Source of the DNA: Cyanidioschyzon merolae | Lineage: Eukaryota | Strand: one strand, 5' to 3' | NCBI GenBank assembly: GCA_000091205.1 | Contig: AP006500.2 | DNA: 64,000 nt | Part shown: one piece after another, positions 22,807 through 64,000 of the stretch | Layout: each line of letters starts with the position of its first letter | Numbering within the stretch: the first letter of the stretch is position 1 | Translations under genes and position numbers: made by a program | Notes under the pieces: generated by a model | Told to the model about the DNA's origin: nothing | What the model saw: only the letters and a program-made list of their open reading frames with translations | The model's database searches: none

Positions 22807-25800
22807 TCATAGCCGCTTCGAGCGAGATCCCGTGGCACCGCCAGCGTCCAAGGAAAACAGTAAGAGCAGGTCCGCCAGTCGACTCGATTGATTCTCTGTA
22901 CCAGAACTGCCGAGTGCATCCTCTACCATGCTCCGTTTCTTGTCCTGAAGCAAGAGCATACGCTCCTCGACAGAGTCTCGAACGATGTAACGCCGAATCT
23001 GTACAGTACGAGTCTGTCCCATTCGATGAACCCGATCCATGGCCTGCTCTTCTACATAAGGATTCCACCAGGGATCCACCAAAAAGACGGAGGAGGCGGC
23101 GGTGAGGTTCAAACCAACGCCTCCCGCACGAAGCGAAGCTAAGAGCACGTTCATCCGTCCAGTGGCGGTTGCGGCCGAGGTAGACGGATTCATCGTGGCA
23201 AACGCCTCGAGTACCGCTGTTCGTCGGCTCTGGGAGAGCGTGCCATCAAGACGCCCCACTTGAAACAGCGTTCGAGCGTGCTCGTGATTCCATGCTTGCA
23301 GCGCTCGTTCAATCAGGTCCAGCATACCGGTCCACTGGGAGAACACCACACATTTGCCGTGCCGAACAGGATCGCGCTCGAACGCCTGCACTGCTTCGAC
23401 GAGATCATTGACGAGTCTCGCGAGCTTGGTGCTGAGGAAGAAACCCCTCTCCAGGTCGACGCGAAAGCGAGACCGACGCGGCGTACTCATCACATCGGCA
23501 AAAGAGCAGCCTTTCCGACACACGGGACATTGGGCGTTCCCGTGTCGATTGCTCAGCAGCAACGTCAAGATGCAGTCTCGACAGAAGACATGCGCGCAGT
23601 TCCGTAAAGCCACTGCGTCATCGATGCTCTCCAAACAGATCGGACACAAGGGTTTGGTGTTCGTACTGGACTCGATGGAGCGCTCATCGTGCAGACTCTG
23701 CTGCAACTGGCCCGCCAACGTTTCCAGGTACGTGGTCGCCTGGTCTGATCCTCGGCCTTCCGTCAAGCGTTGCATAAACTTCTGCACATCCTGGAGAATA
23801 TGCAGGTCGCGTGCCGGGCAGGACATGATCAGGAGCGGATGATCGCAGAGCTGTCGAATGCGCATCAACATTTCAAATACCGTCGTCAAGTAAAAGGTGA
23901 TCTGATTGTCTGCCAAAAACGTGGAAAAGCGCGCTCGACTTGCCTTGTAAACGGCATCATAGAGCTGTCGTTCGGCAGCAGATAGGTCTACGTATACGAC
24001 CTCCGTCTGCTTGGCGGGTAGCTCCAGAATCGGTGCACCAGTGTGCTCGTCCAGTGTGCGCTTCGTTCGACGTAGCATCAGCGGTTGAAGAATCGATGAC
24101 AAAAGCGAGAGCGCTGCCTGCATCTTTGCCGCTTGACCTGACTCGAAGGGACGCGCTATGTACCGTTTCCAAAGCGAGGCATCTGACCAGGGTTCCACCG
24201 CCAGAAACCGCAACAGCGGATAGATGTCTTCGAGATTGTTCTGCAACGGGGTTCCCGTCAGAGCCCAGCGGTAACGGCTTCTCAGGTCGAGCACGGCACG
24301 AGAGCAGCCACTGCTGGGATTCTTGATGACATGCGCCTCGTCCAGGATCAGTCGATGCCAGCGAAGTGCGTACAAACCGCGCGCCTCCGCGGATTCAGTT
24401 TGTTGGGTGCTTTTCCAGGTCGAATACAGGGTACCGTAGGTGGTAATCACCACCTGAAAACGCGCCAAGACCAAGGGATCCGTCTCGCGATCATTCGCGT
24501 AGTAGATATGGACAATGAAATCGGCATCATCGGCGACATGAGTGTTGAGTTCAGCGCACCACTGACTGAGAATCGACATGGGGCAGACAATCAGCGTACC
24601 GCCACAGCAGCTGTCGACGAGCGACCGTCTGGTTTGAGCTGCGGCTGCGGCATTGGCAGCTCGACGTCCACCAGCCTTCGTATCGGACTCGTTTTCGCGG
24701 TGCGACTCGGTGGTGACGCGCTCGGGATGCTTCGTGAACAGCGCTGCCTGTCGGTCGAGTCGTGTCTGCTCCTGGGGAGGTCGTGGGTTTGCCAACATTA
24801 ACGAAATCGCTTCGACGGTTTTCCCGAGTCCCATTTCGTCCGCTAGGATGCCTCCGGCTACCGCCGGCGACGTCATCGGCGGCTGCAGCGATACCCGGCC
24901 CGATACTCGATGCTGGAAGTAGCGCGTTCCATCGGGGAGACGCTGCTCCCGCCAGGTTTGTTGGGTATCGTCGCTACTTGGAGTATGACTTGGAGCTCGT
25001 TCGCGAGCAACCATCCAGTTCAGGGCACTCTGTTGGTACGGACGCAGCGTCGACGCCAACAGTGGCGGCACCGGCACCGGTGGTGCATCAACATGGACGT
25101 TTTCGGCAGCGGCTAGGATCCACTGGACGGCGTCCTCGGGGCGGAAGGCCTCAGTGCGTAGGCACTTGGTTACCGAAGCGGAGCCCCGCTCTCCGGGTGC
25201 TTCGATTCGCGCCTTGGTATGGGTAATGGTATCCGAACTCAGAGCCGTTGTTTCGTTGGTGTCCGTCCCTGAACCGGTTAGGGAGTGGAAGAGCTGTGCA
25301 ATCCAGTGCGTGAGTGCATCCTCCTGGTCCGCGTCGAAGCCTGCAGGTCGCCGACCGCTACGCTCCCCGGGTGCAGCGAAGGAAAACATAGACTTGGCAG
25401 CAAATATGGCAACCTCGGCAATAAACACACAGGCGAATCGAATGTGCAGCGGGCAGTCCACCGCTCGAGCTCGCGCTATAATCAGATTGGCGCTCTGCAA
25501 AGCACCGAGGCAAGTTGGTAGATCGAGCGCTTCCAGCGGCTCAAGACGCCCAAACTCGCGGCCGTGCTCAGCGGTGCACACCCGCACTGCGAAGCGCAGT
25601 CGCTGACGCTGCCGGTTGCGGTTGTGACGACCCAGACTTCCCGTTCCGTTGGACATAATTGGGCTCACCTTGAGCACCAGCTCCGCGCCACTCGTCACCG
25701 CCATGGGCTCAAGCGTGGCAGTGGCGCGAACCGGGACTAGAATACTGCCGAGGTACTTGGGCCAGCGCGTCGTGCCTCCTCCGTGCTCTGCTCGCAGCGC

Positions 25801-26187
25801 CACCAGTTGTTTCTGGATCCAGGGTTCCAACGAGTCCATATCCTCCACCGGGTCTTGAGGCGACGCACACGAGGATGCTGGTTCGCTTTCTGGCGTCGGC
25901 GAGTCAAACACTTCACGGCCAACTGCAGGTGTCCGTCTGCTGGAGCCCACGCCGTCGGAGAGGCGTCCGGTTTTCGCTTCCCATGACGTTGCTGACGGCG
26001 AGTAGGCACGCTCTGCAGCGTGCTGCTGCCTGCTCTTGGCCCCCGTCTCGTGAGATGCCTGGGAGTTGGGGCGACGCTGCGCTTCGCCGCCTCTGTACCG
26101 TTTCCTGGCACTGCTCGCTGCACCTACTTGGCTCTGAAACGGAGTGGAAGCATGCCTGTTCCCTATTTGTGTTTGCATGCGGTCCAT
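22807..26187 (-). CDS. SNF2-family DNA helicase/translocase with an embedded C3HC4 RING finger (Rad5/Rad16/HLTF-like); probable N-terminal HIRAN-like region.
   Basis: Helicase motifs: GGILADEMGLGKT (I), RWHRLILDEAHVIKN (II, DEAH) and LTGTPLQNNLEDIYPLLRFL (III). RING: CPICLESIDDAVALRNCAHVFCRDCI...CPVCR. Helicase-C: ...VLLASLRAGGVGLNLTAASSVFLVDPWWNPYVEEQAMDRVHRMGQTRTV.... The RING sits between the helicase lobes, as in Rad5/HLTF. Confidence 0.9.
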   Translation of the reverse strand: MDRMQTQIGNRHASTPFQSQVGAASSARKRYRGGEAQRRPNSQASHETGAKSRQQHAAERAYSPSATSWEAKTGRLSDGVGSSRRTPAVGREVFDSPTPESEPASSCASPQDPVEDMDSLEPWIQKQLVALRAEHGGGTTRWPKYLGSILVPVRATATLEPMAVTSGAELVLKVSPIMSNGTGSLGRHNRNRQRQRLRFAVRVCTAEHGREFGRLEPLEALDLPTCLGALQSANLIIARARAVDCPLHIRFACVFIAEVAIFAAKSMFSFAAPGERSGRRPAGFDADQEDALTHWIAQLFHSLTGSGTDTNETTALSSDTITHTKARIEAPGERGSASVTKCLRTEAFRPEDAVQWILAAAENVHVDAPPVPVPPLLASTLRPYQQSALNWMVARERAPSHTPSSDDTQQTWREQRLPDGTRYFQHRVSGRVSLQPPMTSPAVAGGILADEMGLGKTVEAISLMLANPRPPQEQTRLDRQAALFTKHPERVTTESHRENESDTKAGGRRAANAAAAAQTRRSLVDSCCGGTLIVCPMSILSQWCAELNTHVADDADFIVHIYYANDRETDPLVLARFQVVITTYGTLYSTWKSTQQTESAEARGLYALRWHRLILDEAHVIKNPSSGCSRAVLDLRSRYRWALTGTPLQNNLEDIYPLLRFLAVEPWSDASLWKRYIARPFESGQAAKMQAALSLLSSILQPLMLRRTKRTLDEHTGAPILELPAKQTEVVYVDLSAAERQLYDAVYKASRARFSTFLADNQITFYLTTVFEMLMRIRQLCDHPLLIMSCPARDLHILQDVQKFMQRLTEGRGSDQATTYLETLAGQLQQSLHDERSIESSTNTKPLCPICLESIDDAVALRNCAHVFCRDCILTLLLSNRHGNAQCPVCRKGCSFADVMSTPRRSRFRVDLERGFFLSTKLARLVNDLVEAVQAFERDPVRHGKCVVFSQWTGMLDLIERALQAWNHEHARTLFQVGRLDGTLSQSRRTAVLEAFATMNPSTSAATATGRMNVLLASLRAGGVGLNLTAASSVFLVDPWWNPYVEEQAMDRVHRMGQTRTVQIRRYIVRDSVEERMLLLQDKKRSMVEDALGSSGTENQSSRLADLLLLFSLDAGGATGSRSKRL

Positions 26188-35900: not shown

Positions 35901-37049
35901 ACAAAAACAACGCATCGGTGCGAACTGACCGCCGTGGAAATGGATTACTTGCTTTGCGACGCCGCTGCGGCCGGGGTGGAGTGCCAGGGACGTGTCACAG
36001 GCAACCACGAATCCCCCGCAGGCGCCGTCGTTTGCTGAATCGTTCGGTGCTGGCGGCACTGGAATAATCAGCTCGGCCGAGGCATCCAAATATTGCTGTG
36101 CAATGGGTCCCTCTCTGACATCCTGCCGACCAAGAAGAATTTCATATGAGACCAGATGGCGATTATGAAGATAATCCGTGTGGATTATGGCGAGCGTTGG
36201 ATGCTCCGTCCCGATAAGGAACTCCATGCTCTGGACCTGCACAACGTCGAGCCGAACCTCAAAGGCCTCACCCATGAGGCTGCCCGGTACTACTTTCAAA
36301 AGGCCGTCATAGGCATAGACGGCTAGGCATCGCGCGCTGGGATCAAGCGCCACAAACTCACCAAGCGGGCATCGCCGGCCGAGTTTAGACGCGAGCGACC
36401 CCGCAACGAGTGTCGCCACTCCCTGCAATCTCGTGTCATACTTGATCACGGCAAAGTCCAAACGTTCCGTCAATATGAAGACAGCGTCCGTGCTCTGGTC
36501 TCCAGCATCGGACGGTAGCACCTGTACAGTGCGTGCTGTTTCCGGTACGGGTTTTAAGGGTGCTTCCACTTTGTGCCGTGAGCTTGTTCGAGCACGCTTC
36601 GAACCACTTCGCGGGGTACCCCCGTGCAGATTCAAACTGCTGAGACGCTCGGAGGGTTGCAACGCACCCACCGGGCTCGCGACCCTTGTTCCCCGAGCAG
36701 TCGCACGCTCGCACAGTCCGACACCGGGCAGTACCTCGAGTGCCGCTATTCTGCCAAAGACCGGTAAGTTCGCGTACGCGACTAACGCGCTCTCATGCGA
36801 CTTTGTGCTATCGGTAGAGACTTCATACACTTCGATTCTGTTTAAACGCACCAGAAGCACACTGGGCTGGTCGGGGGAGATGAAGCGCGCAACGCGCGCG
36901 TGCGTCACGATCGACGGTTGCGCAGCAGTAACCACGTAGAGTCCACATCCAATCGACTCTTCAAGCGGGAGTTGAGCGCTTTCCTCGATTGCTGGAGCAC
37001 CTGCTACGGACTCGCTCACACTAACAGGCTCCAGGCTGTCCGTGGACAT
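32931..37049 (-). CDS. DDB1: DNA damage-binding protein 1 (DDB1; CPSF-A/SF3b3 triple beta-propeller family).
   Basis: 1372-aa ORF. The N-terminus ...LYVVTAAQPSIVTHARVARFISPDQPSVLLVRLNRIEVYEV resembles the DDB1 start (YVVTAQKPT...LEIYVV). The C-terminus ...FVDGDLVERFRELEPTEMEFVAAQ...IKLLVDDLARLH matches the DDB1 tail ([22 protein letters not shown]...EELTRIH). Confidence 0.85.
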   Translation of the reverse strand: MSTDSLEPVSVSESVAGAPAIEESAQLPLEESIGCGLYVVTAAQPSIVTHARVARFISPDQPSVLLVRLNRIEVYEVSTDSTKSHESALVAYANLPVFGRIAALEVLPGVGLCERATARGTRVASPVGALQPSERLSSLNLHGGTPRSGSKRARTSSRHKVEAPLKPVPETARTVQVLPSDAGDQSTDAVFILTERLDFAVIKYDTRLQGVATLVAGSLASKLGRRCPLGEFVALDPSARCLAVYAYDGLLKVVPGSLMGEAFEVRLDVVQVQSMEFLIGTEHPTLAIIHTDYLHNRHLVSYEILLGRQDVREGPIAQQYLDASAELIIPVPPAPNDSANDGACGGFVVACDTSLALHPGRSGVAKQVIHFHGGQFAPMRCFCPISGIGGSSKSASVEANRQDHFETGLEMLAAAGYHAHYLLGDRDGFLYVLSVGAEVGMRLECVCESSVASAIAYLGSDLVFVGSALGDSQLVRLLPSQTESPELVQTTLFATASASSHERRESRAERAECQLWFGQVVQCYTNIGPIQDLLVTGDDSFSDGHIITCSGVSRMGSLRIIRNGIGFVEHAAVELDGIKALFTLPSLTSPEWDEFLVVSFTAETRVLRLAAHDELVEVESLAVDEATILAMRLPAEQLALWVTASYVGLVDLTLLERPAVAWTPPSSEQITNAVFDELHKLVLVSTSNAQLYVLQQRKTSLVPVGSQTLPAEVACIHAAYGIVALGTWAESRIRLFRLHEDTGNRWELECIRESALPSTSVPRSVLLTYLDDHGGLMADHGGRAHLCLLVAVGDGRLFAFNVSQPDAKRSGPEPEDLSKCELQLQHPRQLRLGSRPAALNNLQLHGMRYVFAACGRASVIHAHHGTLFCGNVNLRDVTRAVRFHTKGFPDSIAVATEQGLALGGIEHIQQLHIRRHDLREQPRRIAHLRGYICLLTVSIVFGEERHHVRLLNDETLETITSHDLAMNEHGLSLVAIPERDVFVVGTAYVLPSEMEPSRGRILVFSREELLLLNELYTPGAVYTMSALADPSDRTCRFPASAARFLAAGVNNVVILYDWGQSGHGDDYELREVARHLGHVLVLRLEARGDQLLVGDLMKSLCVLQLVLPEGETSDGASPCLKAVAWDYETAWITACAFLNEDTYLAADNSYNLLSLQRNPHETRSEFRHALNRAGAFHLGDLVNVFRRGKLVTEASGNEEAGTGNGHSTIDTESTRDVARASTGTTTADNVSRQTLLFATTAGAIGIIVPLDPAQHRMLSRVEKALRSLTDHPAEAGAADNGHERVRRSPLTSIRLGVEGFAHADWRTPLSERALNSLHSMTCFDLPRRGFVDGDLVERFRELEPTEMEFVAAQVGASIEHIKLLVDDLARLH

Positions 37050-37099
37050 GCTTCAGCTACGCTTTTTCAGCAGCGCCTAGGCACGGGTAGCGTACAACG

Positions 37100-39000
37100 T
37101 GGCGCCAACGACGTTGATGCGTGCGTGTTTTGCGCGCACGCACGCATCCGGCGGTGCGTGCGCGCGGCAATTCTGTATAAGGATGCGCTGAGGACGGAGC
37201 GTGCCTCATTGAATGAGGCCTGGACGGACCACTGGACAGAGCTGCATGAAAACGTAACTGGGCACTGCCAAGACCGAATCTATTGGCAACAGTATGCTGC
37301 AGAACTACCGCGCCTCGAACCGGTACCGGAATGGAACGACCCAATCTTCTGGCCTGAATCTGTTCGGACCCTGCTATGCGCAAGCAACCGCAAAACACCT
37401 GGCATCGGCGGTATCCCTGCGGAGAGGATGAAACTGGCGACCCCAAAAGACGGGACAACAGGGACACCATCGATACCAGATGAACCTGACACAACGTTAG
37501 GTAAACGCCTTGTGGAGCTCATCCAACGCATGTTCGAAGAGGCGTACATCCCGGATGTATGGAGGACTGTCGAGGTCGTACCGATCCTCAAAAAGGACTC
37601 TGACATACACACACACACAGACATGAACAGACATGAATATCTACCGGACTATGCGCCTCATCCCGTAAATCATGAAGCTACTTTGCGCCATTCCCAAGAA
37701 ACGGACTCAGATAGGCCTCGTGGAACGCAAGTTCTTCGCCCCAGAACAGGCTGGATTCCGGAGCCACGAGGAGTGCATGAGCCATGCCCTGACCCTAGCT
37801 GAAGTGGTGCAACGTCGCTCCATTAGCGGCCAACAACCAATTTACGTATGCTTCATCGATTTCCAAAAGGTTTTTGACACGGCCCCGCATGAGGCTCTCT
37901 TTTTGAATATGGAACGAGCCGGAGTCTCCGGAAAGTGCCTAGCGTTCTTCCGTGCGCTCTATGTAGACTCATGGATGCACATCCGACTGGGCGACGGCTC
38001 AAGAATCCTTTCGATAAGGATCTGCCATGGACTGCGACAGAGCGACCCCACATCCCCGCTCCTTTTCAATATCTTCATCAACGATCTGCTGAACAACTGC
38101 AGGCAATACGGGCTTGAGGTGCCGTGGATAGACTGTGGAGAGCCCGGTGAAGAGCGCCCACATGGGAACCGCCTCGCAGGCCGTCTATTTGCGGACGATG
38201 TCGTGCTGTTGGCACCCGCCCCGGAAACGCTTGCTGCTAGCATGCAACAAGTCAGCGCCTGGGCCGATCGCTGGGAGATGAGCATAGGAGCATCGAAGTG
38301 CGGCGTCATGGTCATCCATGGAGACTCGCAGCGCATTCGCAGTCGCTCGTGGCGGTTGCAGAATCAGGAAATTCCGATCGTGGAAAAATATCGCTACCTG
38401 GGGGTCTGTCTCACGCCGACGCTCGACGAAAAGGCACACGTTGACGAGATGATCGCCAAGATGCATAGAGGTACAGCGATCGCACGCCCATTCCCATCCG
38501 ACCCCTCTATCTGCATAGCAATCCGTACGAGGGCACTAAGGATGTGTATCATCCAGCCTGCGACCTGGGGTACTGAATGGTGCGGCATGAAGCACCCAAA
38601 TGTCTCGCGTCTGCAGACAGCCGCCAACAGGGCAATGCGACTCGTTGGTGTTGGATGCTCAATGTAGAGCAGAGCAACCACCGCGCTGGCACTCGGACTT
38701 GAACTCCAAATACCCTCGACAGAAGCGATAGCAGCAGGCTGCCGGGCATGTATACGGGCCAAAGGGCCCACCATGTACACCTGGTTCAGTCGGAGTTTCA
38801 TGAAGACCCCAACCCACCGCAAGAACACTTGGATGAAATCGACGCAGATTTGGGTGAAGCGCCTCTTGGGCGAAAACACGCTCCCCAATCGTTCCCCAGA
38901 AATATAGAAGGCTCCCGCCGCCTCAAACGCACGGTTCATGAAACAGTATGGTAACGCTGAAGTCGAAATATTCGCATCGGAGACGTTGATCGGACGTAGC
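37100..39000 (+). mobile_element. 5'-truncated, degenerate non-LTR retrotransposon (LINE) fragment with a reverse-transcriptase domain only; no endonuclease or ORF1.
   Basis: The pre-RT region (...VPILKKDSD...) lies in track ORF 36900..37802. RT domains continue in a different frame in 37672..38667: ...NYRP-like KLLCAI..., QPIYVCFIDFQKVFDTAPHEAL, SPLLFNIFINDL and FADDVVLLA (the F/YADD box at about 38188-38199), then ...KYRYLGV.... The frame break lies near an (AC)n/'acagacatgaacagacatgaat' low-complexity patch at about 37605-37650. Boundaries are approximate. Confidence 0.65.
37672..38667 (+). pseudogene. Reverse transcriptase ORF remnant of the LINE fragment, out of frame with the upstream RT segment.
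   Basis: Contains RT motifs 3-7 including FADD, but is separated by a frameshift from the N-terminal RT motifs encoded in frame 36900..37802. It lacks endonuclease and C-terminal domains. Confidence 0.6.
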
Positions 39001-55195: not shown

Positions 55196-57484
55196 CTAGG
55201 GCGCATGACTTCCAGATACGTTCGTGGCTGCTGCAGCGGCAGCGGTCAGGTCGTCGAGAAACGCCTCGGGCGAGAGCATCTCGGTTGTTCCGTAGATAAT
55301 CTGGCGATCGTCGTGGATGCGAGTGGTGAGATTCTCCCACTCAATAAAATTGCCACCTCCGACCATAAAAACGATCGCTTCGGTAAACGATCCACGCGGC
55401 AGGGATGAGGCTTTGTTTGTGCAGTGCCCGTCTCGAGCAGCAAGTGGATCCAGCAGTAATGAGGCTGCACGTTCTGCAGCTGCACCTGGGTGCTCGTGTT
55501 CCGCGCCCCGCGAGGCCGAATCCAAGTCATCGTCGGGCGAGGCGTTCCGCATCCACGAGTCGACAATACTGGCAACGATTCCGCTCCGCGTCGTGGGAAT
55601 CAGGCCCTTCACGGTGCTCGCCAGCTGCGTCAGGCCTTTGTGGCCGTGCTCATAGATTCGAGTGACCAGCGACTCGAAGATTTCCCTGCCTCCACCTGTC
55701 GCTGTCGTGAGGCGATCGATCATGCGGCTGCTGCTTTTGCGTGCCGGCGACGGACTGTTGCCGTCCCTGTGCGTTGCAGCGGGGTCGAGCTGGCGCGGTG
55801 TCGCTGCGCGCTGGCGCATCACGTAGCTAAGAGCGCTCGTCTGACAGCCACAGATATCGAGTACATGACAGTATTCTGCGAGCTTGGTCTGCGGAATACC
55901 TGACGGCGAGAGGATCTGGTACATAAGCAGCAGCCGCAGGCAGTCGCGGGCTCGCTGACTCAACGACGAGGCGTCCGCGGAGGCCGTACTGGAAGGCGGT
56001 TTCGCTAGAAGATCGGCTTCCCCAATGATTCGGTCTAGCGAGTTCGATTGCACACTCGAAGGCCTTTCCAGCAGTGAATCCTCGAGCTGAAACAACAGGT
56101 CCAACTTCCGTGCCTTGATCTGCTCCAACAGTGCGGATGCGATGTTCGTATGCATATCGAGCTGCCGCTTCCATCGAGTTAGTCGCGGAAGCTCGGCGAC
56201 GGCGTCAGCAATCTCCCGAGTGCTTGTGCCGGTTGCCTGCATATAGGCCTCGAGCTGCGTCTCGTCTGCCGTCTCCGCGAGCAGCTTCTGGACATTGCTG
56301 CCTCCGCCAGACCGTGCATTGATCTCCTGAACCTGCGCACGGTACGCTGTCAACGCTGTTTCGATATGCTCCGCCACTTGCGGGAACGGCAACGAAGCAT
56401 TTTCGGCCCAGAACGGATCGGCCTCGTCATCGAGGTCGTACTGCGTCCGCTCTGTGCCGGGCTTGGTTGCCGGCATGCTGACTCGGCTGAGCTCGAATGG
56501 CAAGAGCTCGTGGATTAGCGCCTCATAGGTCCATCCGTGGTGCAGCATGATGGCCAGGTCGACGTCACGGTCGAGCAGCGCCAGCAGCGGCCTTCGCAGT
56601 GGCGGCAGGCCGGCTTCACTGTGTTCGCGGAACAACGCCGCCCCGCCTGGCGTATGCATATACTCCCAGATTTTGGCGCACAGTTGCAGTGCGACTCGCT
56701 CCGATGCGCCGCGTCGCAGGCAACGTATATACGGCACACATCTTAGGGTCACGCAAACAGCAAATAAACTATCCACAATAGTCGCGATCGTTTCCTGAAT
56801 CGCCTGCTCATCGGCCTGTGCACTGAACAGACGCCGGAAAGAGCGCCGCGCTATGCTTGGCGGCATGCTGAAGAGGTTGCGCTTCAGACAAACAAAGCCG
56901 CAGTACAGGTCCACGACGCGAGTAACGGACTCGATGCGCCGAGCTCGAGCCAGGGCCTCGGCCAGACGCTCAAGCTCGTCGCGGCTGATAGCCGAAAGAA
57001 AATATATACTGCAGTGTGCGTATCGATCCGCAGCACAGTCTCGGACAATCGTCTGAATATTCTCGTGATTCGGCTGGATCAGGTAGACAGCTGGGACCTC
57101 GGGTATGACTTGGCGCGAGCTCTCTAAGTTCAGGTGTAACGTAACGCCGCACGTTCGTAGTGTTGGCACCTTCAGCACAGGAGCAAGCACCTCGCGCGCC
57201 GTTTGGTCGATGACGAGCACCTTCCAAAAGTCTCTGTACACGTCTTCCGCGTCCAAGTCGTCCACGGTCGCCGCGGCAGCATCGTAACCGGGGTTCAGTT
57301 GTCCATGCAGTGCACCGTTGGCAGCGCTGTGTCCGGTAGCGGCCTCAGCGCCGCGGAGCGGGTTACCGAGCGCCTCGCACAGAACAGCTTTCTGCCGATC
57401 CCGCAGCGAGAACCACGTTTTCGCCAATGATTTGAGCTGCGTGGCGAGGTCCGAGTGACGACTCGGCTCTGCTCGCGTTAGCAT
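55196..57484 (-). CDS. SLY1: Sec1/Munc18 (SM) family protein, Sly1/SCFD1-like (ER-Golgi SNARE regulator).
   Basis: N-terminal block ...FWKVLVIDQTAREVLAPVLKVPTLRTCGVTLHLNLESSRQVIPEVPAVYLIQPNHENIQTIVRDCAADRYAHCSIYFLSAIS... matches the SM/Sly1 domain-1 pattern (WKVLIxD..., PDVPAIYFVxPTxENIxxI). Track ORF 55196..57808 begins upstream; the likely ATG (MLTRAEPSR..., resembling the Sly1 N-peptide) is at 57484 by my count. Confidence 0.7.
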   Translation of the reverse strand: MLTRAEPSRHSDLATQLKSLAKTWFSLRDRQKAVLCEALGNPLRGAEAATGHSAANGALHGQLNPGYDAAAATVDDLDAEDVYRDFWKVLVIDQTAREVLAPVLKVPTLRTCGVTLHLNLESSRQVIPEVPAVYLIQPNHENIQTIVRDCAADRYAHCSIYFLSAISRDELERLAEALARARRIESVTRVVDLYCGFVCLKRNLFSMPPSIARRSFRRLFSAQADEQAIQETIATIVDSLFAVCVTLRCVPYIRCLRRGASERVALQLCAKIWEYMHTPGGAALFREHSEAGLPPLRRPLLALLDRDVDLAIMLHHGWTYEALIHELLPFELSRVSMPATKPGTERTQYDLDDEADPFWAENASLPFPQVAEHIETALTAYRAQVQEINARSGGGSNVQKLLAETADETQLEAYMQATGTSTREIADAVAELPRLTRWKRQLDMHTNIASALLEQIKARKLDLLFQLEDSLLERPSSVQSNSLDRIIGEADLLAKPPSSTASADASSLSQRARDCLRLLLMYQILSPSGIPQTKLAEYCHVLDICGCQTSALSYVMRQRAATPRQLDPAATHRDGNSPSPARKSSSRMIDRLTTATGGGREIFESLVTRIYEHGHKGLTQLASTVKGLIPTTRSGIVASIVDSWMRNASPDDDLDSASRGAEHEHPGAAAERAASLLLDPLAARDGHCTNKASSLPRGSFTEAIVFMVGGGNFIEWENLTTRIHDDRQIIYGTTEMLSPEAFLDDLTAAAAAATNVSGSHAP

Positions 57485-58071
57485 CGTGGCCTCTTGAGGT
57501 TGACTACCAGCAGGTAGCAGGCAAGGAGGCAGCCGCCTGCCGTCAACGCCTCCATGAGTCTGTGCGTACGCTGGGATTGCTGCGGCGGCGATCCCGCCAC
57601 AGTCGAGAGCACCTGCTGCTCTCGGGAGCGACTCGACGTTCACGAGCAACAGGAAAGAAGCAGTCATCAGCGATATGATATATAGGACCTTGACAGCAGA
57701 GGAGCAATAAATATGAGCAGGCTTCTCGGTCTGTCTGGTCCCTGTCATCCATATATGGTGCTCCCGTAATGAATGAAGAGCGAGCAATCTGAACAGACTT
57801 TTCAGCATGTTCAGTCTCTTTCAATCATATAATGTGCTCCTATGGCGGATAGAGACCGTCCAATCTCATTAAACTTCTTTCGACGATCCGCTCCTGTCTG
57901 CAATGCAACGTGCTTGCCAAGGATCCGTTCTCGGGTGGTGCTTGTCGATCATTTGCACCGTATGGCGTACGAGACTCCATGCATCGAGGCCTGGACTTGC
58001 AGCACAGCTACATGAGCACATAGATACACGTCCATTGTGGAGGCGCAACTGCGGTTCGGTTCCGTCTCTGA

Positions 58072-59580
58072 GTGCGAAGTGCGTCGCCCGCACCGCAGCA
58101 TCCGCCATGCTGCATCCATGACACGCATGTGCGCTCGGATGCGTGCTGCACGGGACACGTGTCGCTCTTGACACACGTCTCTGGGATTCAGCACGGCAAA
58201 TATACTCTTCTGGGCTGGAATACGCTCAAGTCGAGGTATATGCGAACTGGACCGCAGATTAGCGCGGCAGCAGTCACGAAGTGGACCTGCTGGCAACGCC
58301 AGCGCCAGCTGGAGCGCATGGCGGTGTGGATTGTAGCGAGTCTTGCCGCACCTGGAGCGAAACAGGTACGTGAGGCTCGGTATGAGCACCGGCCGCGCTT
58401 CTCGACCGAAGCGGTGCCGCTTTGGAAACTCACCATGTTGTTGGTGCGCCTTTATCACAGCAGCTGGCACGCGGGATCGCGTGAAAGCACTTACTTGCGA
58501 GAGCTCTTCTATCGGCTCGTTCCTGTTTTCGATAGCCAGCAGGAATTGACGCAATACCTGGATCGTTTACTTGCCGCTGCACGAATCTCTCGTTTCTCAT
58601 TGGGTATCATTGCCGAGTCACGCGGATGGGTGTTTTTCGGTAGCGGGATCCAGCTGCAAAAACGGTCTATCGAAAACGAGCGACCTCGATATGTTCAATC
58701 AGAAGCCGCCAATGCAAGGCTGTGCACGCCCCATCGCGGTCTCATGCCGATTCCAGATGACATCGTGCTGGACCCTGGGGCGTATCAGCTGGTAGTGGAG
58801 CCCCGCCAAGATCTAGTTGTCGTCATCCTCATCGTGGAAAAGTTCGGCGTATTCCGCTGTCTCGTGGATGAAGGATTTGCCTCGATCCTGCCGGTACTCA
58901 CAATCCTTGTCACTGGCGGGGGCCAGCCGTCGCTGGCAACGCGTGCACTGGTGGCCCAGATAGCGCGATGCTTGGAAGCGCACCATGCTGCTTTTAGGAG
59001 CACGAACGCCCCGCATACGTATCCCCGGTTCGACATCTACGTCATCACAGACTACGATCCATACGGCCTCTGCATTGCTCGCCAGTATCGCCGATCTCTG
59101 GCTGCAGCGCTGCCGCAGTTCACTGCTGATTCGAAGTTCACCCGTCTGCCACGCTGGATAGGCCCACGCGCCTGCCACCTATTCCGAGCCCGATCAAGTC
59201 GTGCGAACTGCGAGTTACTCCGCGCCAAGTCCGAGGCAGACCAATCTCCACTCATGCGCGGTCCGATGCCATCCCAGCGGGCACTGGTACTCGCACGAAA
59301 CATCTTTGCCGAGGCAGTCCTTCAGGGCGATTCGCTCGTTGCCGAGGAGCTGCACCACATGATTGGCTCGCAGCTGTATACCGATCCATCGATGCTGAAA
59401 CTGGCCAGGAACCTGCCCTGGATTGACGGTTGCCCCGGTGCCGCTGGGGATGGTATCGGTACCCATGACTTGCATACCCTGGTGCTGCTCCTGGGACCAG
59501 GGGGTTTCGCGCGTGATTTTTTGCCGCGCTTGATCCTGGAAACGAGGCAGGAAGAGCTTAGAAAATCACTTGGGCTATGA
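58072..59580 (+). CDS. SPO11: SPO11 / topoisomerase VI subunit A family (meiotic DSB-forming transesterase).
   Basis: 5Y-CAP catalytic region ...LVRLYHSSWHAGSRESTYLRELFYRLVPVFDSQQELTQYLDRLLAAARISRFSLGIIAESRG parallels human SPO11 (VYHLL...KRDIYYTDSQLFGNQTVVDNIINDISCMLKVSRRSLHILSTSKG), with the catalytic Tyr in RELFY. TOPRIM: ...DLVVVILIVEKFGVFRCLVDEGFASILPVLTILVTGGGQPSLATRALV...FDIYVITDYDPYGLCIARQY (E...DxD metal site). The track start is GTG; candidate ATGs are at 58240 and 58318. Confidence 0.8.
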   Translation: MRSASPAPQHPPCCIHDTHVRSDACCTGHVSLLTHVSGIQHGKYTLLGWNTLKSRYMRTGPQISAAAVTKWTCWQRQRQLERMAVWIVASLAAPGAKQVREARYEHRPRFSTEAVPLWKLTMLLVRLYHSSWHAGSRESTYLRELFYRLVPVFDSQQELTQYLDRLLAAARISRFSLGIIAESRGWVFFGSGIQLQKRSIENERPRYVQSEAANARLCTPHRGLMPIPDDIVLDPGAYQLVVEPRQDLVVVILIVEKFGVFRCLVDEGFASILPVLTILVTGGGQPSLATRALVAQIARCLEAHHAAFRSTNAPHTYPRFDIYVITDYDPYGLCIARQYRRSLAAALPQFTADSKFTRLPRWIGPRACHLFRARSSRANCELLRAKSEADQSPLMRGPMPSQRALVLARNIFAEAVLQGDSLVAEELHHMIGSQLYTDPSMLKLARNLPWIDGCPGAAGDGIGTHDLHTLVLLLGPGGFARDFLPRLILETRQEELRKSLGL

Positions 59581-59630
59581 TGTGTGCGCTGCGCGTACCG
59601 CTGCGACTACTCCTTTCAGTACGAGCGCCT

Positions 59631-59945
59631 CTATTTCGAAGCCAAGAGGTCCGAGGCTTCCGCTGGTGTCCTCGTTTCCAGTTGTAGTGCGTGCACCGAT
59701 TCAGCAAGCTCCTGTTCCAAAATCTGGTAGACACGTCGGTGACGCTCGCGCAGAGAGAGGCCCACAAACTGTGCGGAAACAATAGCAACGCGAAAGTGCG
59801 TCTCCCCGTGCGCCGGCTTGCTGGCGTGGCCCTCGTGCAGGTCCGACTCGTCGACCACCCGAAGTACCTGGGGCTGCAGGGCGCTCCGCAGCTTCGATTC
59901 AATTCGTTCACGAACAGGTGCCAGTGTTCGCATGGCGGCCCGCAT
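59631..59945 (-). CDS. BolA-family protein (104 aa).
   Basis: ...VVDESDLHEGHASKPAHGETHFRVAIVSAQFVGLSLRERHRRVYQILEQELAESVHALQLETRTPAE matches the BolA consensus (HFxVxIVSxxFxGxSxLxRHRxVxxxLxxELxxxIHALxxxTxTP). Confidence 0.85.
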   Translation of the reverse strand: MRAAMRTLAPVRERIESKLRSALQPQVLRVVDESDLHEGHASKPAHGETHFRVAIVSAQFVGLSLRERHRRVYQILEQELAESVHALQLETRTPAEASDLLASK

Positions 59946-60721
59946 TCGCTAACGCTGTGCGTCTCGAAGGGTGAGTGCTCTGCTTACGCACCCACCTGCC
60001 CAGTTGGACGCTGCCGCACCGGTTTTTTTTGCATTCCCCAGGCGCCTACAAGAACGTGCCCGACGGGACCCAGCAATGCGTCAGGTACGATCACAATCGG
60101 ATAGCGTCAGGACTAGCCGAGGCCGTCAATACATGATCAACGCGAACACTGAGCGCTAGGCGCTGCCCTGCCGAGCCTTCGGTCGGGTTGTGCAGAGACT
60201 GACCGGATTTCTACAGATATCAGCGGCTCTTGATCATTGCATGTCGATGGACATTGCAGGGCGCGACGTCGACAAGACGCCTACGGCAAGACCTTTCAGG
60301 TTCAGGTACGCACGATGCAGCGGCATACGAGCACATATGAAGAGCTGTTGAACTGGATTCGCCGCTATTAGTACGGAAGTCTGCGCACTTACGAGTAGTC
60401 ATGCACATGCATCAGCTTAGAATGCACAGACAAGCGACGTGCGGAACGAGACGCGCATGCGTTCCTGGGAACCTATCCCTTGACACTCGTACGCCATACG
60501 AACATCCAAGCGTATTCACTACATTGCATACGTACAGCCACATGCATAGATATCTATATATGCAAGATTACACACAGACTTATATCCAGAAAGATGAATG
60601 CCTCGATAGCTCCACATACGGAAGCAACGCTTTGCTCGATCCTAATCTAAAATTCGAGTGCAATCAGAAAAACTCAGGAGCTTTTCGTGCGGTCAAGGAA
60701 CCAGTGGCGCTGCGGTATTTC

Positions 60722-61039
60722 ATGGACACGAAAGCGCAGCAACTCGATTCGGATCAGGAACCTGAACTCACAAAGCTTGCTGAACTTCAAGTACACGAGC
60801 AAGTCCGAAAGGCAGCGTTTGCCAAGTGTGACGATCAAGTCCGGGCATACGTTGCCTGCAGCCGTGAACGCACGGTTTCCGTTGTTTGGGCGTGCCGAAC
60901 ACTGCTGAAGTCGTTGAACGAGTGCGTCCAACAATACACGGGTGCAGAACAATATCGATTGCAAAGAATCGAGTACGCCAAAGCACACCCGAACGCGGTC
61001 AAATCGTGGAATCGTTCGAGTAAAGTCGAGACACCCTAG
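60722..61039 (+). CDS. CMC1: COX assembly mitochondrial protein CMC1-like (twin Cx9C).
   Basis: Two Cx9C motifs with exact spacing: CDDQVRAYVAC and CRTLLKSLNEC. The ~105-aa size and context ...AAFAKCDDQVRAYVACSRERTVSVVWACRTLLKSLNECVQQY follow the CMC1 pattern (C..E...F..C......R.IS.VWKCR.....M..CL). The track ORF 60401..61039 adds 107 unrelated upstream codons. Confidence 0.75.
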   Translation: MDTKAQQLDSDQEPELTKLAELQVHEQVRKAAFAKCDDQVRAYVACSRERTVSVVWACRTLLKSLNECVQQYTGAEQYRLQRIEYAKAHPNAVKSWNRSSKVETP

Positions 61040-61292
61040 ACAAGCACGCGGATACTGGGCACAACGAGTAGGACGCTGTGACATGACGGGCCTAGAAGAC
61101 GTTCGCGTAGCGACCGGAGCGTCGCTTCGGTAGCGTTCACTGGTGACGTGGTCGTTTTATGCGTCTCTATCGTCTGGTGGCGGGGGAGGTCTGCGCTGCT
61201 CCGCATGAGCAGCACGGAGCGCATGGTATCAGTCCAGGCAAGTGCCGCTCAGGAGCCGCTTACACACGTTTGGAGGCATTCGTGGGCGATGT

Positions 61293-62552
61293 TCAGTAGA
61301 CAATGAGCCAGCGACCGTGGTAGCGACGACGCCTACCGAAACGTCGCCTCCAACGAAGGCGCCACGGAGCATACGCGCTAGCACGGAACTGGTGGTGTAG
61401 CACCAACGTGATCGAAGTTCCAGGAGACTTGCCACATGCGAAAGCGCTCTCTTGGCGGAGGCCGTTCATTTTCGGCACACGCTTCGATCGAGAACGCTGT
61501 GTACTGTCCGCGATGCCGGACTTGAGTGGCGATACAGACGGCGGGCAGACACGCGTAAACTCGCTAACGTTTGGAGAATTACAGGCACCACCGTTAACGG
61601 AAATCCGCCCCGCGCTTATTTTGGTCTTATTCTGTTGTGGTGATCCCTGGCGCTGGTGGCGAGCATCGGGCTCTCTTGCCTCAGATCTTGAGGGTTCGTT
61701 TTCCTGAGCAGGCCTCGCAAGAGCCGCATCATCTTCGAAGGCGTCGTGCGAAGATACGCTGCGAGCCGGCTGCACTGAATGCGTCTCCTCGGTCGCCTCG
61801 CGACTTTCTTGCGCATTCATCGCAACTACCACGCTCGATGCACCGATTCGAGGCTTTTCCAGCTTCTCGATATCGTCATATGGGCACCCTGCATACCGAG
61901 TACACAGCGGAGAGCGTTGTTCGTCGTTCCGTTTCGCTGCTTGCCAAAGTGTCCTTTCCAGTTCCGTGATTCTCTCTGATGCAGCCCCAGTACACGCTGC
62001 ACTTGTACCTGCGTTCTCCGAACTTCGCTCTGCGCAAAGCGAGCGAGCGCTGTCAGGTGTGTCCAAGGTAACAGCCGGCATCGCGGTGGCTATCGGCTTC
62101 TGGAGTGAAGCCGGTGTCAGCTCCGAGTCCATGTGGCACGCCTTCGTTGCACGAACATGTGGCGTGCCTTTTGATGTTCGAGACGGAAGCGGGCTCGGCA
62201 CATCAAATCCTAGTCGACGGAGCTCGCGTGCCGCCCGCGCCGTCAAGGGCACCGACTCAACGCCGCCGGCACAGGTCGGACCCGAATGAACACCCAGTCC
62301 GAACTCTGCAGACGGGAGTCCAGGCGATTCTAGCCCAAGAACTTTTATTGTTTGCTGCGGAGTGACACAAGCGGACGACGTTCCTGTAGGGTCGCCCCGG
62401 CTGTGTGCTCCACGCCGTTCGCGCTGGCCTCTCCCGGGTGTTTGTATTTCCACGGTTAGTCTGTCAGCTGACCCCAACTCCAGGGTATCCTGGCTCGATA
62501 CTGGACACCCGTCCTCGCTCTGGTATCTTTTGCTCCTGGAGCGTGTGATCAT
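61293..62552 (-). CDS. Hypothetical low-complexity (Ser/Ala/Arg-rich) protein; coding status uncertain.
   Basis: 419-aa ORF with no recognisable domain and an odd basic tail (...RWRRRFGRRRRYHGRWLIVY). It could be a genuine disordered protein or a chance ORF in GC-rich DNA. Confidence 0.3.
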   Translation of the reverse strand: MITRSRSKRYQSEDGCPVSSQDTLELGSADRLTVEIQTPGRGQRERRGAHSRGDPTGTSSACVTPQQTIKVLGLESPGLPSAEFGLGVHSGPTCAGGVESVPLTARAARELRRLGFDVPSPLPSRTSKGTPHVRATKACHMDSELTPASLQKPIATAMPAVTLDTPDSARSLCAERSSENAGTSAACTGAASERITELERTLWQAAKRNDEQRSPLCTRYAGCPYDDIEKLEKPRIGASSVVVAMNAQESREATEETHSVQPARSVSSHDAFEDDAALARPAQENEPSRSEAREPDARHQRQGSPQQNKTKISAGRISVNGGACNSPNVSEFTRVCPPSVSPLKSGIADSTQRSRSKRVPKMNGLRQESAFACGKSPGTSITLVLHHQFRASAYAPWRLRWRRRFGRRRRYHGRWLIVY

Positions 62553-63748
62553 CTTCTACACTGAAGGGAAACGAAGCACTGCTGGCCCCTGCTACACTCG
62601 CGAGGCACCCAAGGCATCCCGGTTCTGCAGGTAGCCGGCGGCTCGGATGCCTCTGTTGGCCGCGCTGGATCGCTAACCGCCAGAGCGGAAATGTAACGGC
62701 GCGAGGTTCGATTTGTCTCTGGGCGCTTTGAAAGCGCCTTTCGCACAGCGGTGCTCCCTCCGCAGGTCACAACACGCCAGACCTAAGCGGTGACTTAGTC
62801 TATGGAACATTGTGCGATTTGGCCTGCAGGTATGCTTCCGACTGAAGACTCGGAGGAAGCGAAGTGTACAGATCCGTCAGCGGAGGAATAAGGTATTTCA
62901 AGGTGCAGCTTCGAAGCATCTGGAATGCCGTGCTCGTATCTATGGGCATTGGGAGGCACGTGGCGGATAGATTTTGTACCGGCAGATGGCAGCAAGGCCA
63001 CATATTTTTATACGGGGACAAGATATTCCGGGATCGGCACGAACATGCTCATGTATTAGCGCTGGCGCATGCTTTGCACCAATGGAAAGTCCAAGGATAG
63101 TGCTTTCGCCTTGATCCGCTCTTCCGATATTCGAGGCCCTGATACGGGTACCACAGAGCGAGAATCCCTACCCGTAGAAAATTATGTTTCCAATGCTGTG
63201 AAGATAAACTATTGAAAGGAGAACCTTGCCGCGCCGACGGTTACCAGAAGTTCCTCTGGTCTGGCGCACTTGGCGTCGAGATTGGATTCTCTCTATCGTC
63301 GGTTGTCGCAAGCGCACAGTCGGGATACTTTCATGAGATTCACCGCTCGTACACCATGAGAAAATGCAACCTGAACAGTTAGTATGCACGCCGGGATCTC
63401 CCACTATACTCGACTGATGCGTGCAACGCTTGCTCTTCGTTGGTCTAGGGCGTGCACGCTGCGCACTAGCATACGAACCGCTACAATTTCCGATTCAGGA
63501 CTTGTCTCTTGATACGAGCCTTCGGCTATGCCATACCGAACTTAGCAGCCTCGCGTAAGCTTTCCACAAAACCGTCCTTGTCTTATTCCTGAGTAAATTT
63601 CGTTACATTGACACAGCGGAAACGTGGCGCACCTACCCAAACCTCGCCTGCATATCTGCGAAAACGCCTCGTAGCCGTTCGTGCGCCATTGTCCTCGAAC
63701 TTATTCGCCAACCTGGTACTTGCCGGCTTGCGATGCCGTTTGCGTGTT

Positions 63749-64000
63749 ATGCGCACCAAATGCATCCTACGAACACTACAGGCGGCGACAGTGCAGGCAG
63801 TACCAAAGTATGAGCCGCGGGAGTGCTGGTTCTATGACTTTGGCGATCGACTCCTTCCGTACGAGCCGGTGCACCGGTGGCAACAGCAGCTGCGTGCGAT
63901 CCGACTGGGGCGGAGCGGCGAAGCACCGGCAACGACGTTGCGATTTCCGGACGCTTTCATGTTGCTCACGCACACGCCAGTGTACACGCTAGGGACGGCT
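63749..64000 (+). CDS. 5' portion of a protein-coding gene running off the right edge (at least 84 aa); product unknown.
   Basis: In-frame stop at about 63590-63592. ATG at 63749: MRTKCILRTLQAATVQAVPKYEPRECWFYDFGDRLLPYEPVHRWQQQLRAIRLGRSGEAPATTLRFPDAFMLLTHTPVYTLGTA..., still open at 64000. It is absent from the ORF track because it has no stop in the window. The composition is protein-like. Confidence 0.35.
   Translation, partial: MRTKCILRTLQAATVQAVPKYEPRECWFYDFGDRLLPYEPVHRWQQQLRAIRLGRSGEAPATTLRFPDAFMLLTHTPVYTLGTA

Follow-up and report, generated by a model that had tools for sequence, protein, structure and literature searches.

CMR274C of Cyanidioschyzon merolae 10D is very probably an orthologue of SPO11-2, which together with SPO11-1 forms the meiotic part of the Spo11/TopoVI-A family, and the role inferred for CMR274C is the making of meiotic DNA breaks. 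It is an intron-less nuclear gene on chromosome 18 and was analysed here within a 64,000-nucleotide stretch of DNA (the window).

The CMR274C gene and its catalytic residues

The initial annotation had placed a SPO11/TopoVIA homologue at positions 58072-59580 of the window. This interval is indeed an uninterrupted open reading frame on the + strand, which comprises 502 codons and opens at a GTG. The earliest ATG in the frame lies at 58240, and translation from there gives a 446-residue product identical to BAM82494.1 / XP_005538530.1, which is encoded on a contig of 1,253,087 bp. In addition, the N-termini of the orthologues could be aligned only from about residue 14 of this product. Because the product from ATG 58240 matches the GenBank protein exactly, and in view of the orthologue N-termini, 58072-58239 is regarded as a non-coding in-frame extension. 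Thus the open reading frame stood as described, while its start had been set 168 nt too far upstream of the annotated coding sequence. The features of the gene are given below, with residues of the product counted from ATG 58240.

58240-59580, + strand: CMR274C coding sequence, SPO11-2 orthologue, 446 aa plus stop (exact protein match, ATG, Pfam, clade assignment)
58072-58239, + strand: in-frame 5' extension of 56 codons from the GTG, outside the annotated protein, within the intergenic stretch between the gene and its divergent neighbour SLY1
58474-58608, + strand: Pfam TP6A_N stretch (winged-helix / 5Y-CAP region), including RELFY; residues 135-179 of the open reading frame
58498-58512, + strand: RELFY motif with Arg87 (CGA, 58498-58500) and catalytic Tyr91 (TAT, 58510-58512), from alignments
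58822-59172, + strand: Pfam TOP6A-Spo11_Toprim stretch, profile positions 1-97 of 170 only
58837-58839, + strand: Toprim Glu200 (GAA) in the IVEK motif (58831-58842), from alignments
59050-59058, + strand: DxD with Asp271 (GAC), Tyr272 (TAC) and Asp273 (GAT, 59056-59058), from alignments; ITDYD motif at 59044-59058

Both Pfam domains of the family passed their gathering thresholds. PF21180 (TOP6A-Spo11_Toprim) reached 44.4 bits (threshold 24.1; E-value 2.4e-11), and PF04406 (TP6A_N) reached 26.7 bits (threshold 26.0; E-value 5e-06). The Toprim match covers just 97 of the 170 profile positions because the remainder is broken up by lineage-specific insertions. A profile built from CMR274C and its relatives retrieved Top6A of S. 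shibatae (8.3e-33), Top6A of M. jannaschii (5.6e-28) and yeast Spo11 (1.6e-25). With the single sequence, the best phmmer match among solved structures was yeast Spo11 (8urq, E 2.8e-06), in which RELFY pairs with RDIFY (the catalytic-tyrosine motif), IVEKFGVF with IVEKEAVF, and TDYDPYG with TDADPYG. As the domain thresholds were exceeded and the catalytic residues align with those of yeast Spo11 and archaeal Top6A, the identification of a Spo11/TopoVI-A homologue is confirmed, far beyond chance.

The initial annotation had further stated that the catalytic tyrosine and the acidic Toprim residues are intact, and had named their loss as the observation that would speak against a functional protein. 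No such loss was found by alignment. The conserved arginine four residues upstream of the catalytic tyrosine in the winged-helix (5Y-CAP) domain is also present, so that all five catalytic residues (R87, Y91, E200, D271 and D273) are kept in CMR274C. R87, Y91, E200 and D271 are invariant in the 50-sequence family alignment and in 60/60 sequences of the tree alignment described below.

The AlphaFold model, calculated with the 50-sequence alignment, gave a mean pLDDT of 81.9 and a pTM of 0.78 and was confident over the core. Low confidence was limited to the N-terminus, residues 42-46 and residues 149-164, the last of which fall within an insertion that is specific to cyanidiophytes and separates the two domains. 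A Foldseek search of the PDB at E<=1e-3 returned eight matches, exclusively chains of the yeast Spo11 core complex and of archaeal Top6A (entries 8urq, 8uru, 9o0g, 9o7o, 9o8p, 1d3y and 2zbk), each with a probability of 1.00. Global TM-scores of these matches were modest (0.28-0.39), as would be expected for two-domain proteins whose domain orientation differs.

Comparison with characterised members of the family showed both shared and divergent features. A. thaliana SPO11-2 (AT1G63990, Q9M4A1) and its algal and protist orthologues have the same winged-helix (WHD) plus Toprim architecture as CMR274C. The RELFY tyrosine context (QRELFYKL in AtSPO11-2) and the SRxSLGI(x)A(x)SRG motif that follows the WHD are common to the Arabidopsis and C. 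merolae proteins, although their identity is only 23%. Four insertions specific to cyanidiophytes set CMR274C apart from AtSPO11-2. The first (about 12-15 aa) separates WHD and Toprim, the second (about 17 aa) follows the GQPS helix, the third (about 16 aa) follows WIGPRA, and the fourth (about 28 aa) lies close to the C-terminus. The GQPS sequence itself stands where most relatives show G(Y/F)PD. Yeast Spo11 (8urq/8uru, core complex) was the best Foldseek match, and its catalytic Tyr, Glu and DxD positions align with those of CMR274C at an overall identity of about 20%. The archaeal Top6A proteins (2zbk, 1d3y, 2q2e, 9o0g) share the same fold and catalytic residues, with family-profile E-values from 8.3e-33 to 7.5e-17.

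Assignment among SPO11-1, SPO11-2 and Top6A

Eukaryotes have up to three Spo11 lineages, in which SPO11-1 and SPO11-2 are meiotic while SPO11-3/TOP6A is the A subunit of topoisomerase VI (PMC3791482, PMC9957857). The phylogenetic placement against SPO11-1, SPO11-2 and Top6A that the initial annotation had suggested was carried out with reference sequences of A. thaliana SPO11-1 and SPO11-2 taken from PMC9957857. Fragments of yeast Spo11 and of three archaeal Top6A proteins were obtained from PDB alignments. When At SPO11-1, At SPO11-2 and red-algal sequences served as queries in a word-indexed profile search, only eight proteins were retrieved, none of them named SPO11-3 or TOP6A. As no eukaryotic TOP6A was obtained from it, the archaeal fragments served as the outgroup.

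A HMMER scan of 1.84 billion representatives gave 189 matches at E<=1e-3. Only five reached E<=1e-10, which indicates that the CMR274C protein is very divergent. BLASTP of CMR274C alone was ambiguous, with 64.3 bits to yeast Spo11 and 60.8 bits to AtSPO11-2. The best species-named match outside the cyanidiophytes, a protein of Cyanophora paradoxa, scored 261 bits with AtSPO11-2 vs 160 bits with AtSPO11-1.

We then scored the proteins with clade HMMs made from confidently labelled sequences (24 SPO11-1-like and 26 SPO11-2-like, each plus the Arabidopsis member), from which red algae were left out. CMR274C scored 135.3 bits with the SPO11-2 model, 113.2 bits with the SPO11-1 model and 25.0 bits with the archaeal Top6A model. 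For the three other cyanidiophycean orthologues the SPO11-2 model was ahead by 42-47 bits. In contrast, yeast Spo11 showed the opposite preference, as expected, with 143.8 bits for the SPO11-1-type model vs 107.5 bits for the SPO11-2 model.

A neighbour-joining tree was calculated from 60 sequences and 330 columns; it is distance-based, its clade labels were assigned by BLAST to the two Arabidopsis references, and its sampling leaves aside eukaryotic TOP6A/SPO11-3 as well as CMQ111C and CME071C of C. merolae. The four cyanidiophycean sequences were monophyletic in 98% of bootstraps and lay inside the SPO11-2-like group. When a tolerant bipartition was scored, in which the cyanidiophycean clade joins at least 85% of the SPO11-2-like sequences to the exclusion of at least 85% of the SPO11-1-like and all archaeal ones, it was recovered in 98% of 150 replicates. 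The sister group of the cyanidiophycean clade was mostly SPO11-2-like in 95% of replicates. The exact bipartition 'cyanidiophytes + SPO11-2' had a bootstrap support of 2%, since P0110, a sequence labelled SPO11-1 by BLAST, nests within the SPO11-2 group. These results agree with Thangavel et al. 2023, who tabulated XP_005538530.1 as C. merolae SPO11-2 and KAF6000630.1 (P0002 in our alignment) as Cyanidiococcus SPO11-2 (PMC9957857 suppl.). Clade HMMs, neighbour-joining bootstraps and the published listing thus all put CMR274C in the meiotic SPO11-2 clade, which supports the meiotic one of the two options named in the initial annotation.

A contaminating gene, or one of archaeal or bacterial origin, was considered as well and rejected, since the products of the neighbouring genes match C. 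merolae proteins exactly and base composition stays uniform along the window (about 0.51-0.60 GC). Moreover, the nearest relatives are eukaryotic, and CMR274C separates from the archaeal sequences in the neighbour-joining tree. A grouping with bacterial or archaeal TopoVIA is therefore ruled out, and the gene is a eukaryotic one.

The initial annotation had also offered a TopoVI-type activity, provided that a B subunit exists elsewhere. In that case CMR274C would be the A subunit of a somatic, non-meiotic topoisomerase VI acting with TopoVI-B, like plant SPO11-3/TOP6A. A B subunit does exist: four TopoVI-A-like genes and the TopoVI-B gene CMT273C of C. merolae were tabulated in 2014 (Moriyama et al., PMC3914683), and the strong family-profile match to archaeal Top6A would fit such a role as well. 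However, the archaeal Top6A model falls far behind the SPO11-2 model for CMR274C (25 vs 135 bits). All 148 non-cyanidiophycean proteins within the best 150 of the 189 HMMER matches were closer to AtSPO11-1 or AtSPO11-2 than to archaeal Top6A, so that none of these best matches favoured Top6A, and the archaeal sequences stood on the other side of the split in the 98% of replicates with the SPO11-2-like grouping. Moreover, the obvious A subunit is CMQ111C, which carries the annotation DNA topoisomerase VI subunit A and, in the published orthogroup tables, belongs to an orthogroup with members in 4/4 cyanidiophycean genera. The TopoVI-type activity is better assigned to CMQ111C, and a somatic topoisomerase VI role of CMR274C appears extremely unlikely.

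Another non-meiotic function, in particular organellar DNA processing, was suggested by localisation predictors, two of three of which call CMR274C mitochondrial or plastid (Moriyama et al. 2014, PMC3914683). However, the predictors give similar results for CMQ111C, which is experimentally cytosolic, and for other nuclear proteins (PMC3914683). Furthermore, the orthologues differ in their N-termini, and a conserved presequence is not seen in their alignment. No member of the Spo11 family is known to have an organellar function. Such a role is thus very unlikely, and a meiotic SPO11-2 remains the preferred assignment.

The duplicated gene block and the metal site

CMR274C has a near-identical paralogue on chromosome 12, CML010C (BAM80651.1), located near the left end of that chromosome as judged from its gene number. 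The two products share 444/446 residues (99.6%); they differ by two substitutions, P52L and H373N, and all motifs are identical. Both open reading frames are intact. On its two sides CML010C has copies of SLY1 and BolA, the genes that border CMR274C:

55196-57808, - strand: SLY1 (Sec1 family), CMR273C, BAM82493.1; upstream divergent neighbour, in the duplicated block
59631-59945, - strand: BolA, CMR275C, BAM82495.1; downstream convergent neighbour, in the duplicated block

The 3' end of the BolA gene lies 50 nt from the SPO11-2 stop codon. According to gene identifiers in published orthogroup tables, from which the extent of the duplication was deduced, SLY1, SPO11-2, BolA and the following genes (CMR273C-278C) form a seven-gene block with a near-identical second copy, CML009C-015C. 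In the same tables, this block has two copies in Cyanidiococcus and one copy in Cyanidium.

The other genes of the window are tightly packed housekeeping genes, coding for a methyltransferase, a pyrophosphatase, spermidine synthase, a SNF2/RING helicase, COG2, a DDB1/CPSF1-type propeller protein, Hsp33, an eIF2B subunit, an actin-family protein and a cyclophilin. tRNA genes were not found in the 64-kb window.

Within species, paralogues are 96-99.6% identical (Cyanidioschyzon and Cyanidiococcus), whereas between species the SPO11-2 orthologues, CMR274C and that of Cyanidiococcus, share just 42% identity. This difference points to either concerted evolution or independent duplications. The metal site provides a related observation. 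In the tree alignment, the third position of the DxD motif is Asn in 26/27 SPO11-2-like sequences and Asp in 25/26 SPO11-1-like sequences, and it is Asp in archaeal Top6A as well. This D-x-N clade signature was derived here from 27 SPO11-2-like sequences and is not a formal definition. Since Asn prevails in the SPO11-2-like group, the intact DxD of CMR274C is atypical for SPO11-2. The other cyanidiophycean orthologues (3/3) read DYN where C. merolae reads DYD, and the simplest reading of the alignment would be a secondary N-to-D change in C. merolae inside the SPO11-2 clade. It is conceivable, though still rather doubtful, that the block duplication is ancestral and that its copies have been homogenised by long-running gene conversion, which would have spread the C. 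merolae DxN-to-DxD change to both copies. Alternatively, the same block may have been duplicated independently and recently in each lineage.

The presence of two copies also raises the question of whether CMR274C is a decaying or catalytically redundant, fast-evolving duplicate, dispensable for break formation because another paralogue cuts. The extreme divergence and the large insertions of the protein would agree with such a fate. The same is true of two entries in the published data: the orthogroup assigned by OrthoFinder shows no Galdieria member in the accessible part of the table, and the Cyanidium member of the orthogroup is absent from the Spo11 genes in the accessible part of Data Set S1 (PMC13353863). 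On the other hand, both reading frames are intact, the five catalytic residues are kept and the core of the structural model is predicted with confidence. Among four environmental variants of the coding sequence (about 99% identical), differences were seen at six synonymous codons and one non-synonymous codon. Orthologues are kept in Cyanidioschyzon, in Cyanidiococcus and in a third, more distant cyanidiophycean-type sequence. Redundancy is also hard to reconcile with Arabidopsis, where the tyrosines of both SPO11-1 and SPO11-2 are required (Hartung et al. 2007, in the form cited in PMC9957857). A decaying or redundant duplicate therefore seems unlikely. As both copies are intact, the variants are mostly synonymous and orthologues persist in related genera, CMR274C is, judging from the sequences, most likely functional.

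Predicted role and the sexual cycle of C. merolae

By analogy with yeast Spo11, Arabidopsis SPO11-1/SPO11-2 and archaeal Topo VI, CMR274C would be active during the prophase of meiosis in diploid, cell-walled cells. The protein would work as a dimer, possibly as a heterodimer with a SPO11-1-type paralogue as in Arabidopsis. Tyr91 of each subunit is expected to attack one DNA strand, with the help of Mg2+ that the partner subunit holds on its acidic Toprim residues E200, D271 and D273. The predicted outcome is a double-strand break with the protein covalently joined to the 5' ends, which would start homologous recombination.

In Arabidopsis, a SPO11-1/SPO11-2 heterodimer is believed to work together with MTOPVIB (PMC9957857). 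For C. merolae, CME071C is a further family member in published lists (PMC13353863, PMC3914683), and the listing by Thangavel et al. includes a C. merolae SPO11-1 (PMC9957857). Hence a heterodimer of SPO11-2 with an SPO11-1-type partner is plausible in C. merolae. CMR274C probably also needs a TopoVIB-like partner; none has been identified in red algae, and an MTOPVIB-like protein was not detected in any red alga surveyed in PMC9957857.

The initial annotation had valued the gene as evidence that bears directly on cryptic sex in little-studied protists. The host is in fact C. merolae 10D, a model red alga, and its Spo11 has a long record. The presence of Spo11 in Cyanidioschyzon was recorded in 2008 (PMC2488364), the TopoVI-A-like genes of C. 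merolae were tabulated in 2014, and the accession was listed as SPO11-2 in 2023. In 2026, Hirooka et al. (Plant Cell) described C. merolae 10D as a haploid clone that mates to give a cell-walled diploid (PMC13353863). Haploids arise from the diploids, and SNP patterns demonstrate genome-wide meiotic recombination (PMC13353863). CMR274C itself stands under Spo11 in the meiotic gene list of the same paper (Data Set S1, PMC13353863). With these listings and the demonstration of mating and recombination, the gene was already known, and the cryptic-sex motivation has been overtaken. We also considered the candidate mating-type region of C. merolae, which lies between CMK076C and CMK078C; those identifiers are foreign to the CMR274C locus.

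CMR274C is thus a real, already annotated and published SPO11-2, and an ordinary find. The lineage-specific insertions, the DxN-to-DxD difference from its closest orthologues and the duplicated gene block are minor additions to the existing annotation. As a discovery it matters little; its practical value is that of a target. C. merolae belongs to an early-branching archaeplastid lineage in which an MTOPVIB-like partner has not been found, and protocols for its transformation, mating and haploid induction exist, with which the function of SPO11-2 may be tested.

Toprim motif and start of the SPO11-2 gene

59050-59058, plus strand: Toprim DxD of C. merolae SPO11-2 (CMR274C)

Of 27 SPO11-2-like sequences, 26 have Asn as the last residue of the Toprim DxD, as do all three other cyanidiophycean SPO11-2 orthologues. 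In the SPO11-1-like and archaeal sequences this position is occupied by Asp, and the C. merolae SPO11-2 likewise carries Asp, encoded by the codon GAT. Judging from these comparisons, the Asp in the C. merolae protein is apparently a secondary reversion to the canonical metal ligand.

Four environmental contigs (L001-L004; JGI metagenomes 3300052694 and 3300054705, Logan SRR35626556 and SRR29605740) were 99.1-99.6% identical to the C. merolae SPO11-2 locus and shared its gene order. It should be pointed out that prokaryotic gene callers gave SPO11-2 in these contigs an upstream GTG start and a length of 473 aa. The GTG at position 58072, proposed as the start in the initial annotation, is an over-extension of the same kind.

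SPO11-1 and MTOPVIB in published surveys

According to Thangavel et al. 2023 (PMC9957857), the SPO11-1 of C. merolae is XP_005535585.1, and MTOPVIB is scored 'ND' for all red algae in their table. Moriyama 2014 (PMC3914683) and Hirooka 2026 (PMC13353863) give CME071C (BAM79299.1) as the extra Spo11 family member. Because both SPO11-2 copies show the same BAM-to-XP accession offset (BAM82494/XP_005538530, BAM80651/XP_005536687), XP_005535585.1 and CME071C would be different proteins if this offset holds.

Other features of the window

Unrelated to SPO11-2, a further DNA-metabolism gene at 22807-26187 (minus strand) encodes a protein of 1126 aa that combines SNF2, RING-finger and Helicase_C domains and is similar to the Rad5/Rad16-type DNA-repair helicases. 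An ORF at 37672-38667 (plus strand) matched the Pfam RVT_1 reverse transcriptase with an E value of 7e-20; it is preceded and overlapped by the ORF 36900-37802, which also overlaps the 5' end of a large minus-strand DDB1/CPSF1-type gene. The interval 36900-38667 looks like a retroelement remnant.

Duplicated SLY1–SPO11-2–BolA block

about 55196 to 64000: block of SLY1, SPO11-2, BolA and subsequent genes, CMR273C onward

Gene identifiers in published orthogroup tables place a second, near-identical copy of this block, CML009C-CML015C, on chromosome 12, at its left end. For the upstream neighbour CMR272C, the orthogroup table lists CMO300C as partner and no CML gene, a pairing which may mark the upstream limit of the duplication. 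These tables also record two copies of the SLY1–SPO11-2–BolA block in Cyanidiococcus yangmingshanensis and one in Cyanidium. The two C. merolae copies are identical at 444 of 446 protein residues for SPO11-2, 857 of 870 aligned residues for SLY1 and 102 of 104 protein residues for BolA. Since block paralogues within a species are 96-99.6% identical, whereas SPO11-2 orthologues between species share only 42%, the comparison suggests that gene conversion or else independent duplication has shaped the block.
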